64,000 nt of DNA from a virus, in IMG/VR virus record IMGVR_UViG_3300018080_000002, positions 1-64,000 of that record; one strand, 5' to 3'. Below, piece by piece: positions 14,277-61,876 of this stretch. A program made the translations under genes and the position numbers. Position 1 is the first letter of the stretch. Each line of letters starts with the position of its first letter. Under the pieces are notes generated by a model, which was given only the letters and a program-made list of their open reading frames with translations, had not been told where the DNA came from and made no database searches.

Positions 14277-15251
14277 ATGACAGAAAAACAAGAGACTGCT
14301 GTTGCAGCAGAAACCAAAGAACCCGCCAAAAAGAAACCTACGAAGAAAGAGCGTAACTACAAACCGGAGGAAACGAATTGGGTCTACAAAAAGCTGTCGA
14401 TCCATTTGTTGAGACCGCAGTTAGGTACGTGTCCAGAGGCATCGATCTATCATGAGCATATTTTGAAAAAAGCTCAGAAAGAGATCAAAAAAGCGAACAA
14501 ACTTACCGCGAAACTGACGAAAGCACTGCAAAAATACAAGGATGTTGAGGAAATTCCTTTTCAGAAACAGATTGAGGAATTGTCCGGTATCATTCGAGCG
14601 TACCAGGAGATCGTCGGTAAAAAAGAGGACATCCCACAGGCTCTTGATGAATTGCTGGAGTATGCGAAAGAGCTGAAAGAGGAATGTGATGAGCTGCTGA
14701 AAGGTGGTGGAGCGCAATCTGCAACAGTTTTCATGAGAGATAAGGATGGTTGGCCGATGATCAGCACTCACATGATTCTCGGAAACCTGAAAGAGAATTT
14801 AAAAATCGTCGTGAATAACTCGGATCTGCCTAAAGAGAGTAGAATTTTAGCCAGCAAAGTAGCTGTTGGAGAGTCTATGGCTTTAGATATTAAGCCCGTA
14901 GAGCAGTTCATTCGACCATCTAAGGACATTGTAAGAAAACCTGATGGAGAACGAGAGTTGCTAGAACGTCCGATAGTCTTTGATAGGCAGGGAGTGAAAA
15001 CGACAGCAATCGCTATCTCAGAGTATTTGCCAGAGGGTACGGAATATGAGGTACATCTTCGTTGTCGTAAACATTCTCTGGTGTTAGAGGCACTTGAGGA
15101 GCTTTTTGACTACGCCAAGAACAACGGACTGGGTTCCTGGAGAGGGTCTGGAAATATGGGTGCCTATGTTTACAAGCTAGAGGATTTGTCTAAGGAACAG
15201 GCTGATGAGATAGCCATCCCTAAACATTTGAAAGATGCTGGCTGGAAATAG
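14277..15251 (+). CDS. Solitary RAMP / Cas7-like RNA-binding protein
   Basis: RAMP-like beta1 (LSIHLLRPQLG), P-x-I-x(5)-G motif (WPMISTHMILGNLKE), SEYLPEGTEYEVHL, and a C-terminal Gly-rich loop GLGSWRGSGNMGAY; no other cas genes adjacent. Confidence 0.75.
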   Translation: MTEKQETAVAAETKEPAKKKPTKKERNYKPEETNWVYKKLSIHLLRPQLGTCPEASIYHEHILKKAQKEIKKANKLTAKLTKALQKYKDVEEIPFQKQIEELSGIIRAYQEIVGKKEDIPQALDELLEYAKELKEECDELLKGGGAQSATVFMRDKDGWPMISTHMILGNLKENLKIVVNNSDLPKESRILASKVAVGESMALDIKPVEQFIRPSKDIVRKPDGERELLERPIVFDRQGVKTTAIAISEYLPEGTEYEVHLRCRKHSLVLEALEELFDYAKNNGLGSWRGSGNMGAYVYKLEDLSKEQADEIAIPKHLKDAGWK

Positions 15252-15315
15252 TTTCCAGTCTTTGTTTTGACGCTGTCTGTCCTCAATCCGGTCTGAGGTA
15301 AAGTTACAATTGAAT

Positions 15316-16446
15316 AGAGGTGGGATACCCTTATGTTTGATGCGTTCTTGTTCGTTGGTGGTTGAGTGATTTATGGTTGAGTCCTGTGAAGTGTTGGTAA
15401 GATCCGCTCTCATCTTATGATGTATGGTGCTATGTCGGTGGTGTCCGTTAAAGTGGTGTGATATCCAATGGAGCGATGGTTAGGTCAAGTCACACAAGAT
15501 GTTGTTTGGGTGGATTTACGCATGGTCAGGTTGTTTTTTGTGATGGTTTTGGTGATATAGGGCTAAATATTGCAGAGGTATACTTTAGATAGTATAGCGA
15601 GGTTTGGTAGCGGTATAGTGCCTTTTTGCTTGGTCGTATGTCGGTATCATGATGTGCTCTGAAGTACATTAGGGTTACGGTGAAATGTAGCATCGTTATG
15701 AATGTTAGGTCACGGTTCCGTAATTTATGGTCAATTGCGTTTTTGGTTTTATGACGTGATTTTGGGCTATGTTATCTGTGGGTTTTGTATGGTGATCTTT
15801 GACAACGCGGTTTTATGTGACGGTAAGGTGTCGTTGGATGTCATGCGGTTTTGTATTGGTAAGGTGCGATTGGGTTGTGTGAGCCAATGTATCGGCTATG
15901 TAATGTAACTTATAGTTCGGTATTGTCGCATATTGGTGCTATTAAGTAAGGCAAGATATAGTAATGCCTCGGTGAGTTTGGGCTATGCCTGACAAAGTAA
16001 TGTCGCGTGAGGTCTTGGTGATCCGATGTATGGTTCGATGCGTTTTTGTGTTGTTTTGGTGTTGTATGATTCAGTAACATAGAATGACTTTTAGTTTTGG
16101 TGGAATGTTGCGAATCTTTGCAGGATCATTTGGCGGTAAACTAAGGTAGCGTCTTATTTATTGTAGGTGTGGTGGATTAGTGTGGGATACTGTTCTGTGG
16201 GGTTTTGGTAAACTGAGCTGCTATGAGTTGATGTCTTGTTCGGGTAAGATTGCTTTTAGTATTGTAGGGCTGCGTTTAATGCAGGCGATGTGATATCCTG
16301 CTCAGTCCAGTTTTGTTATGGTATTTCTAATGTGATGTGCCTTTCGCTTTGCTCATGTGGAGTATCGGTTTAGTAGAGCAAAGTTAAGCTGCGCCGAGTC
16401 TCGTAGCGGTGAGTCGAAGTCACGCGGGATGTTGCTATGTAGTGGC
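15316..16446 (+). repeat. Non-coding 5-nt-periodic array of (NNNNY)n-NNNGGY units; putative guide-RNA array for the upstream RAMP protein
   Basis: Manual parse gives 185 pentamers all ending in T/C and 32 hexamers all ending GGT/GGC, with only three irregular blocks; unit lengths are mostly 31/36/41/46 nt. Confidence 0.85.
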
Positions 16447-16472
16447 ATCCCATACGTTTGTTTAATTTTTTT
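16426..16472 (+). terminator. Hairpin and T-rich tract closing the array
   Basis: GGGATGTTGCTA / TAGTGGCATCCC stem followed by a T-rich run. Confidence 0.5.
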
Positions 16473-17117
16473 GTAAGGAGTAATGTTTTATGGATCATGT
16501 TCAAGGTGATGCAGGAAGTTATGCAATGTCAACGGCCTTTGAGAATAAACGAAATTTAGCGGTATTGGCTGAGAGAGTATCTGTTTTAGAGAATTTTGTT
16601 TGTGAGAAATTAGGTTTTAATAAGGAGTTGGAGACTGTCAGGAATAGAGAGTTTCATACTCAGATGAAATTGTATGAGGACATGGAGGAGAAAATTGGAG
16701 AACTGAGAGGTCAATACCATCAGGTTAAGGAATCGATGCTGAGAGTTGATAAAACGATATATAAGTTAGCTGATGTCATTGAAAAATTGTCGGATAAATT
16801 GGGTGCAACTGAACCGCCAGTGGAGGGATAGATATGGATTTTGATCTTTGTAAATTCGATATGCCCATTTTTCCGGTGGTAGCGGGACAGCATTATATTG
16901 TTCCGTTTGATTCTGAGTTGAGCAATTGGGTGATTTCGTTTTTTGACTGTGAGCCGTTTCCCTGTAAATTGCAGTTTATCGGTTCCGATGAATCTGAGCC
17001 TGGTTTTGATTTTGAGAGAGGTGTTTTTGTTGCTGGTGGATCGAAATTGAATGCGTATTTTCCAGACGGGCAAAGGGGGGATGTAAGAATAACTGTTAGG
17101 TTGGAGAAAAGAAAAGT

Positions 17118-17813
17118 ATGAAACACGGTGAATGTAGATTTATGCTGGATATTGAGACTACTGGTATCCAGAAAGAGTTGCACGATTTATTGCAGATCGG
17201 GATTTTAGAGATTCGTTGGAACGAGAAATTTGGGTTGTGGGTTCCTGGGAGAACGTTTGAGTTTACGCAGCATTCGAGTCGTCAACCCGAAAGCGCATTC
17301 GCAAAAAAACATATGGTCGAGCTATATGAGAAAAGTAACAATGCTGATTGGATTTCTCGTAGTGAGGTGAGAAAAAACATTCGTAGTTTTTTTCAATCCT
17401 GTGGAGTTGGTTCTCAGCCGTATTATCGTGAGAAAGTGATTATTTCAGGATGGAACGTGAGCGATTTCGATCTGCCATTTCTCTGCTATCACGGTTATCT
17501 TGAGGCTCCAGGATATGTTGTTAAAAACGGAAAAGACGAAGAGGTAGGCGACTACAACTATCGGATAGACGAAATTAGTGGTGCGATCTATTTCGTTGCC
17601 GAGCAATATGGTTTTGATCGTGATAAACTCGTCAAATATATTCAGGACAAGATAGAAAACGGACAAGACTATTTCGAGATGCCAGAGGGTAAAGAGCATG
17701 ATGCGTTGTACGATTGCTATAAACAGGCTAAATTTAAAAACGTGCTATTGAGTTTTTGCAGGGAGTTGAAAGATGGGTTACATGAAAACCTTTCTGAGAT
17801 GGTTTCGTCGTAA
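17118..17813 (+). CDS. DEDDh 3'-5' exonuclease
   Basis: LDIETTG, GWNVSDFDLPFL and HDALYDC motifs. Confidence 0.85.
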   Translation: MKHGECRFMLDIETTGIQKELHDLLQIGILEIRWNEKFGLWVPGRTFEFTQHSSRQPESAFAKKHMVELYEKSNNADWISRSEVRKNIRSFFQSCGVGSQPYYREKVIISGWNVSDFDLPFLCYHGYLEAPGYVVKNGKDEEVGDYNYRIDEISGAIYFVAEQYGFDRDKLVKYIQDKIENGQDYFEMPEGKEHDALYDCYKQAKFKNVLLSFCRELKDGLHENLSEMVSS

Positions 17814-44698: not shown

Positions 44699-46390
44699 AT
44701 GCCTGTCACTCTTGTTATCCCCACGATAAACCAAACTCAGATGATTGATGATTGTTTAACGTCCTTTTTTAAATTTCATAAAGACGAACATGAGATAATT
44801 GTTGTTGACGATGGTAGTCCACCTGACACTCAAAAAGCGGTTCAAGCAATATGCGAGAAACATGGTGCGGATTTTTTATCAAATTCCTTTAATGTTGGAT
44901 TTTCCAATACAGTCAATCGTGGGATTGATAGAGCTACGAATGACATCGTTATTTTGGTGAACAATGATATTGTTTTTACCGAAGAAATTACGAGTAAATT
45001 TGAGAGCAGTTTCAAGAATGATGAGCGGATCGGTATCGTTGGCGGTTTATTGTTCTATCCGAACGGTACGATTCAGCATGGAGGCATATTTAGGACCGAA
45101 AGCTGGTTTATGCATAGAGCTTGGCATAAAACCCTGAAAGATTCTCCGGTGGTCAAACAGGATTGTTACATTATAGCGGTTACAGGCGCATTATTTGGCA
45201 TCAGGAAAGCGATGTCGGATAAGATAGGGGTTATGAACCCAACGTATTTCATCGCCTGTGAGGACACTGAGATGTGTCTGAGAGCGTGGAAAAATGGCTG
45301 GCGGGTTTTTTATAATGGATCGATCCAAGCGATTCATGCTGAAGGAGCCACTAGAGGCCATAACAACGAAGTCAAAATGAAAAAAGGCCGAGATTGGATG
45401 ATCAAAGAAAAGGAAACCAATCGTCGGTTTGCCCAAGATATGAAAAGATTTGATTTCAAGGTGATTGAATCTCGCATTAAAGATGCAAACTCGAATATTA
45501 GTCGAGTCAAGTTGGCTAAGTTAGATCAAGGTTGTGGAGTGGTGGGTGTTAACAGAGCGGGTGCGTTGGGAGACGTTCTCCTAACCACTGGATTGATTAG
45601 GAAATTGAAGAAAAAGTTTCCAAATTATGACATTCATGTTGCTACTGGTTGTGGCGCAGTCTTTAAAAATAATCCAAATATTAGTCGGCTGGTGAGGTCA
45701 AGGGATCAGTTAGTAGGCAATATCATTTTTGACCTGGATCTGGTTTATGAGAAATCTCCTAAAATGCCGATTGTCGAAGCATACCATCGGTCGGTTTTTG
45801 GCGATGGAGATCTGGTGTCAGATACACAGCCTGAGATGTTCCCAGATGAAAATGACGAAAAGTCTTTAATGGAAAAATTACCGCCAAGATTTTTAATTCC
45901 TCCAGTTGCAGTAGTCCATATGGGGGTTGGCTGGCCGAATAGAACATGGCAAAGGCAAAAATGGTTGAGAGTAATTGATCATTTGGTCAGTAAGGATGTT
46001 CGGATTGCGGTTGTCGGTAAGGCTGGAGATTTTAAGCCAGAGACCAAAAACAATGTTTTAAATCTGACAAATAAGCTTTCTATTCATGAGATCATGATAT
46101 TGATTCAGAAAAGCAATGTTTTTATCGGCATGGATACAGGTTTGTTGCATATAGCATCATGTACGGATACTCCTTTAGTGGGTCTATTTACGTGTGCTAA
46201 TCCGATTTATCGATTAGTTGAGAGAAAAGCTCAGAGTGTAGCATTGATTCCCAAAGTGAGTTGCCGTTTTTGTTTGCATGAAGAGGAGCCTCCTGTCACC
46301 TTTGCAGGATGTAAACGGGGGAATTATCAGTGTTTGAATGATATCACTGTAGCGGATGTTATCAAGTCTGCGAATAAGTTTTTGTTTTGA
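44699..46390 (+). CDS. GT2 + GT9 (heptosyltransferase-like) fusion glycosyltransferase
   Basis: IIVVDDGS, LVNND, EDTEMC (GT2); ALGDVLL, FIGMDTGLLHIA (GT9). Confidence 0.85.
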   Translation: MPVTLVIPTINQTQMIDDCLTSFFKFHKDEHEIIVVDDGSPPDTQKAVQAICEKHGADFLSNSFNVGFSNTVNRGIDRATNDIVILVNNDIVFTEEITSKFESSFKNDERIGIVGGLLFYPNGTIQHGGIFRTESWFMHRAWHKTLKDSPVVKQDCYIIAVTGALFGIRKAMSDKIGVMNPTYFIACEDTEMCLRAWKNGWRVFYNGSIQAIHAEGATRGHNNEVKMKKGRDWMIKEKETNRRFAQDMKRFDFKVIESRIKDANSNISRVKLAKLDQGCGVVGVNRAGALGDVLLTTGLIRKLKKKFPNYDIHVATGCGAVFKNNPNISRLVRSRDQLVGNIIFDLDLVYEKSPKMPIVEAYHRSVFGDGDLVSDTQPEMFPDENDEKSLMEKLPPRFLIPPVAVVHMGVGWPNRTWQRQKWLRVIDHLVSKDVRIAVVGKAGDFKPETKNNVLNLTNKLSIHEIMILIQKSNVFIGMDTGLLHIASCTDTPLVGLFTCANPIYRLVERKAQSVALIPKVSCRFCLHEEEPPVTFAGCKRGNYQCLNDITVADVIKSANKFLF

Positions 46391-60295: not shown

Positions 60296-61876
60296 GTGTC
60301 AAGGTTTAATTCAACAGCAACTAAGGGGGTTCAGACTGTAAAAAATCACGGTGGAGCTGATTCGTACAAACTATCCAAGGAAGTAGAATTGTATTCGGTT
60401 GTTTGCAATAGTTTGATAACGGACAAGTATTACGAGAGTGGAGATAGTCAGCTCGCTAGAATCATAGAGTTGGTAAAAGACTGCGATCCAGTTTTTGTCG
60501 CTAACTTGGCATCCTATGCGCGTAACGAAATGAATTTGAGGACGGTTCCTGTGGTCTTGAGTACGTTGTTATGTAGGAATGTGGGTGGATCTGTAGCCAA
60601 AGATGCGGTTTTCAGGACGGTAAAACGTGCTGATGAAATCACTGAGGTTCTTGGTTATTTCGCTCAATTAAACAAAGACAATTGGAAAAAGATTAGCGAA
60701 AAAGGCCATATCAAGACTAAGAAAATGTCGAAATACTCTCACTCTTTAAAGAGAGGTATTGCGAAGGTATTTGAGTCTGGAAGGTTCGATCGATACCAAT
60801 TTTCTAAGTATAACAGGCAACGAGAATTTTCGTTCAAAGATGCTTTGTTTCTTTGCAATCCTAAGCCTCAGAACGATGAGATGGCTGAACTATTCAAGTT
60901 GATTGCGAGTGATGAATTGGGGTCTGCTGATACTTGGGAAGCTAAACAATCGGCTCTAGGTCAGGAGAATAAGGAGAAATCGGAGGATGAGGCGAAGGTA
61001 TCCAAGCTAGAGGTTTGGAAAGAGATGATTGCGAACAAAAAGCTTGGACACATGGCTTTGCTGAGAAACCTCAACAACATCCTTAAATGTAAGCCTGACT
61101 CTGCTTTTATGGATGATGTATGTCGAGAGCTGGTTCGTGGTGCTAAGAAAAGTAAGCAGTTTCCTTTTAGGTACTGGAGTGCCTATAAGACATTACAGAA
61201 AGATCATGGTCATCACTCAGATCCATTTCTGTTTCAGAAAGTATCTGATGCTCTGGAGCAGGCGATTAGGGATAGTATCAAGAGTATGAGTAAGTTTGAT
61301 GGAAATACTTTGATTGCCTGTGACGTTTCGGGATCGATGGTTACACCTGTTTCAGATAAGTCGATCATTCAAAATATCGATATAGGTTTGGTTCTTGGTT
61401 GTTTGTTAAAAAACGTTCAGAAACTAAATACTATTTTAGGTGTTTTCGGTGACGAATTTAAGATCATTACAGGTATCGGTAATGGGGTTTTGGCTGATGT
61501 CAGGAGTTCATTTGACTGGTCTCATAAAGTCGGTTGGTCGACTATGGGATACAAGGTCATTGAATACCTGAACAAAAGAAATTTGGATGTGAATCAGGTT
61601 CTTGTTTTCACTGACTGTCAGGTTTATGGATCTGCTGGAAATGGATACTACAGCAATGGTAATGAGATGGAGAGACAGTGGAGTATTTACAAGAGCAAGC
61701 ATCCTAATGCAAAGCTCTATATGTTCGATCTTTCTGGATATGGAAACGTGCCTCTAAGATTGGACAAAGGCGATGTTATTCATGTCGCTGGCTGGTCCGA
61801 TAGGATCTTTGAGGCGGTTGAGTATCTAAGAAAGGGATCTGATGCAGTAGATATGATTATGAACTATACTAGGTAA
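60296..61876 (+). CDS. rsr: Ro60/Rsr TROVE-domain RNA-binding protein
   Basis: YARNEMNLRTVP, RADE, KYNR, TWE, MALLRNL, QFPFRY, vWA MIDAS motif CDVSGSM, FTDCQ, GWSD. Confidence 0.9.
   Translation: MSRFNSTATKGVQTVKNHGGADSYKLSKEVELYSVVCNSLITDKYYESGDSQLARIIELVKDCDPVFVANLASYARNEMNLRTVPVVLSTLLCRNVGGSVAKDAVFRTVKRADEITEVLGYFAQLNKDNWKKISEKGHIKTKKMSKYSHSLKRGIAKVFESGRFDRYQFSKYNRQREFSFKDALFLCNPKPQNDEMAELFKLIASDELGSADTWEAKQSALGQENKEKSEDEAKVSKLEVWKEMIANKKLGHMALLRNLNNILKCKPDSAFMDDVCRELVRGAKKSKQFPFRYWSAYKTLQKDHGHHSDPFLFQKVSDALEQAIRDSIKSMSKFDGNTLIACDVSGSMVTPVSDKSIIQNIDIGLVLGCLLKNVQKLNTILGVFGDEFKIITGIGNGVLADVRSSFDWSHKVGWSTMGYKVIEYLNKRNLDVNQVLVFTDCQVYGSAGNGYYSNGNEMERQWSIYKSKHPNAKLYMFDLSGYGNVPLRLDKGDVIHVAGWSDRIFEAVEYLRKGSDAVDMIMNYTR

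Follow-up and report, generated by a model that had tools for sequence, protein, structure and literature searches.

A probable VIPR locus with a reduced repeat and many short guides in a metagenomic phage

Does a solitary Cas7-like (RAMP) gene, followed by a long stretch without open reading frames (ORFs), represent an RNA-guided system other than CRISPR, and if so, of which kind? The question is raised by a viral DNA of 64,000 nucleotides (nt), hereafter the window, which is the first 64 kb of the complete 157,357-bp IMG/VR virus record IMGVR_UViG_3300018080_000002, a genome with direct terminal repeats. An earlier note, made from the letters alone, had proposed a two-component, non-CRISPR RNA-guided system composed of a protein of 324 amino acids (aa) and the sequence directly downstream of its gene, and had pointed to a resemblance to VIPR-type phage loci. 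The fold of the protein, the arrays of its homologues and the VIPR literature support that proposal, and we conclude that the locus is very probably the VIPR system of this complete 157-kb phage. The evidence for this, all of it observed in the present analysis, comprises the fold, a chain of homology to characterized Vipr proteins, the grammar of the array, its conservation beside the gene, the lack of Cas1 and one match between a guide and a target.

VIPR (Viral Interference Programmable Repeat), the existence of which the literature confirms, is a CRISPR-related RNA-guided DNA silencer described in 2026 preprints; it is found mostly in phages and is directed against rival elements (bioRxiv 10.64898/2026.04.26.720920). 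It consists of a Vipr RAMP protein and vrRNAs built from GGY/NN pentamers, with one protomer per repeat (bioRxiv 10.64898/2026.04.26.720920, 10.64898/2026.04.26.720927), where the NN dinucleotides read the DNA and one target base is skipped (bioRxiv 10.64898/2026.04.26.720920). In the type II system of Escherichia phage SUSP1, studied by cryo-EM (bioRxiv 10.64898/2026.04.26.720927), a Vipr of 195 aa is accompanied by vap1 and four vrRNAs of ~100 nt. The methods and the legends of figs. S17-S18 list NNNGG, YNNNG and NNNNG as alternative repeats, together with 'staggered arrays' (bioRxiv 10.64898/2026.04.26.720920), and the available part of a later preprint reports non-canonical arrays (WGT/NN, TGH/NN and others) recognized through language-model entropy periodicity (bioRxiv 10.64898/2026.10.21.760802). 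Going by these portions of the sources, the locus lies within the published range of VIPR, and the loose, hexamer-punctuated grammar described in the earlier note corresponds to the YNNNG and 'staggered' variants.

The Vipr-family protein and its relatives

The vipr gene at 14277..15251 (+), assigned from the ORF list, a structural model, fold matches and profile comparisons, encodes a 324-aa protein of ~37 kDa for which Pfam and PHROGs searches returned nothing. An AlphaFold2 (AF2) model based on a 32-sequence alignment has a predicted local distance difference test score (pLDDT) of 78.7. VIA-align superimposed this model on Csm3 with a Z of 12.7 over 159 residues, all of its top 35 matches being RAMPs, and Foldseek returned Csm3, type VII Cas7 and Cmr4 at E ~1e-5. 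The resemblance thus covers Csm3, Cmr4 and Cas7 of types III, IV, VII and I, and the best matches in BFVD are solo phage RAMPs. As modelled, the product is a Cas7/Csm3 (RAMP) fold with RRM core, thumb and glycine-rich loop, so that the RAMP-like protein of the earlier note survives the structural comparison with Cas7 and Csm3 that the note itself had suggested. These three elements are shared with the Cas7/Csm3 backbone of type III, IV and VII CRISPR effectors, for which polymerization along guide RNA is a common feature, and we propose the same for the window protein by homology.

Homologues of the protein (at least 135, at 45-60% identity) are all metagenomic, on contigs of up to 306 kb, and a search of the full library adds a tail of shorter relatives of ~210 aa. 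In the collection that was searched, the window family and the short relatives are both untagged for nr and UniRef, hence the clade probably lies outside the NR-based census of 667 VIPR systems. A tblastn search gave two weak gut-phage matches. No relative was found in 185,579 GTDB species genomes, from which it follows that no named host carries the window phage as a prophage. For comparison with characterized systems, the SUSP1 Vipr was located at KT454805 28474-29058 (-), flanked by GGYNN arrays, and profiles were built of the window family (A1), of the ~210-aa relatives (A2), of the SUSP1/type II clade (A3) and, jointly, as A5. In hhalign, A1 aligned with A2 at a probability of 100% (E 1e-44), A2 with A3 at 94.6% (E 7e-8, 175 columns), and the joint profile A5 with A3 at 75% (E 2e-5). 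By this chain of profiles, and transitively only, the window family is homologous to the experimentally characterized Vipr of the SUSP1 / X1U2U4 clade. A cluster look-up tied the bridging family to none of the UniProt accessions named in the VIPR paper.

Two features of the protein stand out in these alignments. A helical insertion of ~90 aa (residues ~56-142; 14442..14702, +), delimited by the AF2 model and the A1-A2 profile alignment, separates strand beta-1 from the remainder of the RRM core; it forms three helices in the model with pLDDT <50 for residues 55-91. It is gapped in the A1-A2 alignment, neither the ~210-aa relatives nor SUSP1 Vipr have it, and it accordingly sets the 324-aa window protein apart from published Vipr proteins, which are of ~20 kDa. 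The second feature is a loop rich in glycine (G-loop; residues 284-297; 15126..15167, +), defined by the family alignment and by alignment to the SUSP1 loop. The earlier note had taken it as the end of the protein; 27 residues follow, placing it near the C-terminus. G284, G286, R289, G292 and G295 are invariant and W288 is present in at least 90% of the aligned sequences. The Trp-Arg pair (W288, R289) aligns to W178 and R179 of the SUSP1 motif G-D177-W178-R179, in which cryo-EM places W178 in contact with G2, R179 with Y3 and D177 with G1 of the repeat (bioRxiv 10.64898/2026.04.26.720927). At the D177-equivalent position the window family has S, A, Q or similar residues, with Asp in 0 of 32 aligned sequences. 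Judged from these alignments, the retained Trp-Arg and the lost G1-contacting Asp would suit a repeat RNA that conserves no more than G-Y.

A punctuated pentamer array and its conservation

Directly after vipr, positions 15252-16489 form a gap of 1,238 nt, the largest ORF-free stretch of the window outside the tRNA region, as the earlier note had estimated (~1.2 kb). T and G predominate in it (T 471, G 366, A 246 and C 155). Its autocorrelation reaches an identity of 0.367 at lag 5, 0.376 at lag 36 and 0.370 at lag 72, compared to 0.286 +/- 0.012 in shuffles, which puts the lag-5 signal 6.6 standard deviations above the shuffles. The gap region is unique in this respect, with no sustained period-5 signal elsewhere in the 157,357-bp genome. 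One 200-nt bin within a glycosyltransferase ORF (45401-45600) has a lag-5 excess of 0.10 and no lag-36 signal, and is most likely noise.

An expectation-maximization/Viterbi parse into pentamers and hexamers scored 132.6, against 5.3 +/- 4.6 in shuffles. Together with the autocorrelation and a 36-nt tiling, it delimits a putative vrRNA array at 15304..16445 (+) composed of ~222 Y-N-N-N-G units in 32 blocks, each ended by a Y-N-N-N-G-G hexamer; no ORF in it exceeds 68 aa. In the profile of the 222 units, position 1 is T (0.82) and position 5 is G (0.62), and in a model-free test GT was the dinucleotide recurring at lag 5. The consensus departs from canonical GGY/NN and coincides with the published alternative YNNNG. 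In 30 of the 32 hexamers the additional base is G (background G 0.30), hence a full GGY arises once per block. These hexamers reset the register by +1 every 26-46 nt and give block lengths of 5n+1, namely 36 nt (11 blocks), 41 nt (11), 31 nt (3) and 46 nt (1), which accounts for the peaks at lags 36 and 72. The 5-nt register described as strict in the earlier note is therefore real as a periodicity but not strict, since it slips by +1 at the 32 hexamers, 30 of them ending in GG, and lags of 5n+1 dominate. With 32 hexamer-closed blocks, 26 of which hold 6-9 units, the estimate of about 30 guides is borne out, as is the absence of identical repeats: Tandem Repeats Finder and a repeat finder detected just short weak pairs in the gap. 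An Rfam search of the array found no family, hence no hammerhead ribozymes, and a search for a conserved leader downstream of vipr found none. The tract is bracketed by two hairpins. One with a 9-bp stem in a consensus scan (15240..15260, +; -12.4 kcal/mol, z -2.1) is terminator-like, overlaps the vipr stop codon and is followed by a T-run. The other has an 11-bp stem followed by a U-rich tract (16426..16472, +; -20.9 kcal/mol, z -2.8) and may be a terminator at the array 3' end; the period-5 signal stops there.

The same arrangement recurs in relatives. Nine homologue loci were examined, of which eight are in IMG/VR and one is in an NCBI metagenome-assembled genome (MAG). In every one of them, period-5 tracts adjoin the gene on the same strand, which is the outcome that the earlier note had predicted for homologues. 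The dinucleotide that recurs with this period is GT in almost every locus, the super-period lags are again 5n+1 (21, 26, 31, 36 or 41 nt) with hexamers mostly ending in G, and 12 of 13 arrays are G+T-rich on the vipr strand; the SUSP1 arrays have pure 5n lags. No other ORF is conserved around vipr in the relatives, so a vap gene is lacking. In one IMG/VR relative (109-kb contig, L008:6871-10800) a continuous array of ~4 kb follows vipr, with 764 units and 113 hexamers, in the order of 100 guides. The NCBI MAG relative has a second period-5 tract (L001:1-700), ~4.3 kb upstream of vipr and on the opposite strand, C-rich on the + strand with lags of 26, 31, 57 and 62; arrays can consequently be scattered, and inverted relative to the gene.

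Guides, a target match and the genome setting

For decoding, G and Y were removed from each unit and the three variable bases per unit were joined blockwise. In-frame stop codons are mildly depleted in the decoded triplets (7 versus 12.9 expected). The nine-unit guide block at 15973..16018 (+), with variable triplets GAGTGGTATCTGAAAAATCGCGAGCTT (EWYLKNREL), was scanned against IMG/VR with its nine third bases left open and returned 4 matches, three of them in one gene family. These three agree with the guide at 26/27, 24/27 and 26/27 positions, comprising 18/18 read positions in each case and third-base agreement of 8/9, 6/9 and 8/9. The match is in codon register on the sense strand, ends exactly at the block borders and corresponds to codons 14-22 of a 152-aa gene of phrog_1035 (endonuclease VII; His-Me-like nuclease), on contigs from unrelated phages, of 50-55% GC, that are ~72% identical to one another. 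From the match counts of three 16-base patterns (34-78 matches), the searchable positions in IMG/VR were estimated at ~2e11, so that matches of at least 26/27 are expected ~1e-3 times per guide in the collection, with 7 guides tried. We take this gene of other phages as the predicted target of guide 15973-16018. The fourth match, in an integrase, agrees at 5/9 third bases and is probably due to chance. The target gene lies between major head protein and tail-fibre-like genes (L016:5969-8348), and late genes further downstream could likewise suffer from a roadblock at this place. Cleavage at cos often depends on HNH-type nucleases encoded beside packaging genes. The window phage genome holds no copy of the target gene and no self-target, the back-translated EWYLKNREL peptide gave 0 matches in bacterial genomes, and none of the other guides matched the full target contigs above a shuffled-triplet control.

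The remaining guides were less informative. With third bases open, guides 15783, 16019 and 15896 gave 49, 34 and 78 IMG/VR matches with random-looking third-base counts; for guide 15896, one element (4 contigs) reached 6/8 third bases, which is not significant. Guide 15783-15823, which decodes to FMDLNGYD, matches a primase-like ORF of a complete 20-kb virus within its CHC2 zinc-finger region (L039:4678-4701), where the peptide is identical and 16/16 read bases agree but just 4/8 third bases do. With ~0.2 same-peptide matches expected and 2 seen, this candidate target is suggestive only and not statistically secure. Guides 16168, 16369 and 16328, searched with purine/pyrimidine third bases, gave 0 target matches.

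The earlier note had also supposed that the leading bases of successive pentamers spell a gapped target code. The read bases of guide 15973-16018 do match throughout (18/18), but so do most of its third bases, and the code may not be gapped. They equal the majority base of the targets at 8/9 positions, whereas ~2.5/9 would be expected under free drift (p ~4e-4). It is conceivable, albeit doubtful, that the Vipr clade of the window uses a code of three bases read and two held, instead of two read and three held with one target base skipped. Loss of the G1 pocket, with the Asp replaced and G1 variable, would then free a base to carry target information, a guide of n repeats would specify a contiguous target of 3n nt, and the extra G of the hexamers would supply the only full GGY as a guide boundary or processing mark. 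A recent templated origin of this single guide could explain the third-base agreement equally well, and at the possible second target, the primase zinc-finger motif, just 4/8 third bases agree.

The surrounding genome has a GC content of ~40% in the window and nearly all genes on the + strand, to which practically every long ORF belongs; throughout window 1-64000, each 1-kb bin has a strong positive GC skew (0.1-0.45). A tRNA cluster of 17 genes occupies 58-64 kb, and directly before its main part a 526-aa ORF (60296-61876) matches phrog_850, 'RNA-binding protein' (E 6e-42). A 231-aa ORF at 17118-17813, two genes downstream of the array, contains an exonuclease domain of the DEDD/RNase T type (Pfam PF00929, E 1e-5; phrog_192); as it is not kept beside vipr in relatives, it probably has no part in guide processing. 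Neither the locus nor 20 kb of the window gave a megablast match among cultured phages, and a helicase search identified no close cultured relative.

Mechanism, rival explanations and significance

Compared to the YNNNG and 'staggered' VIPR variants, as far as the accessible text of the preprint describes them, the locus has the same solo phage RAMP gene with flanking non-coding tandem pentamers, conserved G-Y and variable bases, the same abutting guides without spacers or tails, no cas genes, and codon-register targets in other phages. Judging from the wording of the figure legends, the 5n+1 blocks would correspond to the published 'staggered' arrays. The WGT/NN-type arrays likewise combine period 5, a degenerate first position of the fixed trinucleotide and an adjoining Vipr-like fold; they are modelled as XYZNN at exact 5-nt spacing, and hexamer punctuation or a third informative base is not described in the available part of that preprint. 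With SUSP1 the window shares the fold, the G-loop Trp-Arg, one protomer per 5-nt repeat (assumed here) and a target register that advances 3 nt per repeat and puts the third base in the wobble position of the codon. In contrast to SUSP1, with its GGYNN repeats, pure 5n spacing, 9-16 repeats per vrRNA, conserved structured tail and vap1, the window conserves G-Y only, has 6-9-repeat blocks ended by an extra G, no tail and no vap, strings ~30 guides in a single 1.15-kb tract, and has replaced the G1-contacting Asp. With tail-less abutting blocks of 6-9 repeats, no leader and no conserved neighbour ORF, the locus is not a type II VIPR.

We propose that the 324-aa Vipr polymerizes on RNA from the downstream array, with one protomer per 5-nt repeat. 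The G-loop Trp-Arg would hold the conserved G-Y of each repeat and present the variable bases. The array would act as a 'staggered' string of ~30 short guides of 6-9 repeats, in which the extra G recreates the full GGY once per block and could mark the end of a guide. Each guide would then lead the filament to matching DNA in a competing mobile element, resulting in silencing.

Several points weigh against this reading. The canonical GGY/NN repeat is lacking, as are a vap gene and vrRNAs of 9-16 repeats that end in a conserved 3' tail. The direct comparison of A1 with A3 was not significant (probability 3%, G-loop only), and membership by sequence is consequently transitive, through the bridging family A2. 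A convincing target was obtained for just 1 of 7 guides tested, and the target phages have 50-55% GC as opposed to ~40% in the window, so that co-infection is conjectural. Finally, transcription, processing at the hexamers, filament formation, protein-RNA binding and silencing are steps that we infer.

One alternative is that the array acts as DNA and not as guide RNA. It would then be a phased element of the bent-DNA or protein-binding kind, for instance an origin, packaging site or nucleoid-like scaffold, with the RAMP-like protein or another factor bound directly to it. Such an element would fit promoter-like matches below shuffle expectation in the region and a continuous array that bears none of the hallmarks of processed RNA (conserved handles, ribozymes). 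It is nevertheless very improbable. The protein has an RNA-binding RAMP fold, with the G-loop residues that in solved Vipr-vrRNA complexes grip G and Y; the signal is specific to one strand (in 12/13 arrays the vipr strand is the G+T-rich one); DNA curvature would call for 10-11 nt instead of a period of 5 with +1 resets; and one block, once decoded, agrees with a foreign gene in codon register. Little credence is likewise due to a role mainly as decoy or sponge, with vrRNA-like transcripts that titrate or misdirect the Vipr of rival phages in place of an offensive guide set. Satellite 'solo vrRNAs' that redirect rival VIPR machinery are reported in the accessible part of a preprint (bioRxiv 10.64898/2026.10.15.759431), and 6 of 7 decoded guides are without a clear target. 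However, every relative has the array directly beside its own vipr, the match of one guide to a gene of a rival phage is highly specific, and the guides of the relatives matched neither the window genome nor each other's loci above control level.

Last, the 36-nt period could be taken as TIGR-like units or as eroded CRISPR repeats, in which case the locus would be a CRISPR or TIGR-type array that has degenerated, accompanied by a stray Cas7. Lag 36 is indeed the strongest autocorrelation peak in the window, and TIGR guide RNAs are reportedly 36 nt long according to a 2025 TIGR-Tas paper. The period of TIGR arrays is 18 nt, as cited in the part available of a further preprint (bioRxiv 10.64898/2026.10.21.760802). 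Yet no direct repeat of any length is conserved, and the 36-nt unit resolves into 6 pentamers and 1 hexamer, with 21, 26, 31 or 41 nt in relatives. In the complete phage genome we found no Cas1 and no CRISPR-like repeat array; cas2, cas3, cas5, cas6 and cas10 were not searched for, so the earlier statement that no cas genes or arrays lie nearby stands for Cas1 and for the repeats. CRISPR effectors have a 6-nt period, repeat handles and Cas5, Cas10 or Cas11 partners, whereas the window locus has no conserved neighbour genes and no CRISPR repeats, and so does not show the repeat-spacer array and partner cas genes of class 1 systems. Nor does it have the Nop-domain Tas and the alternating short direct repeats of TIGR-Tas, its protein being a RAMP and no direct repeats having been found. 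As far as sequence analysis goes, this explanation is refuted and retains practically no probability.

In conclusion, the window most likely carries a VIPR system that operates by the published mechanism but has a reduced repeat, numerous guides that are short and abut one another, and no accessory gene. The kind of system is already described; the target match of guide 15973-16018 is new here. VIPR is months old and most knowledge of it comes from one clade (SUSP1 and P. fulva); the locus adds a well-delimited example of a metagenome-only clade with a larger Vipr and ~30 guides in one tract. It also offers an independent sequence rationale for the looser repeat, the Trp-Arg being kept and the G1-contacting Asp lost, and a concrete pair of guide and target, the latter a site of 27 bp that lies in a nuclease gene within the structural operon of other phages. 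If the third base is truly read, the recognition code would not be fixed across VIPR types, which would bear on target prediction and engineering.

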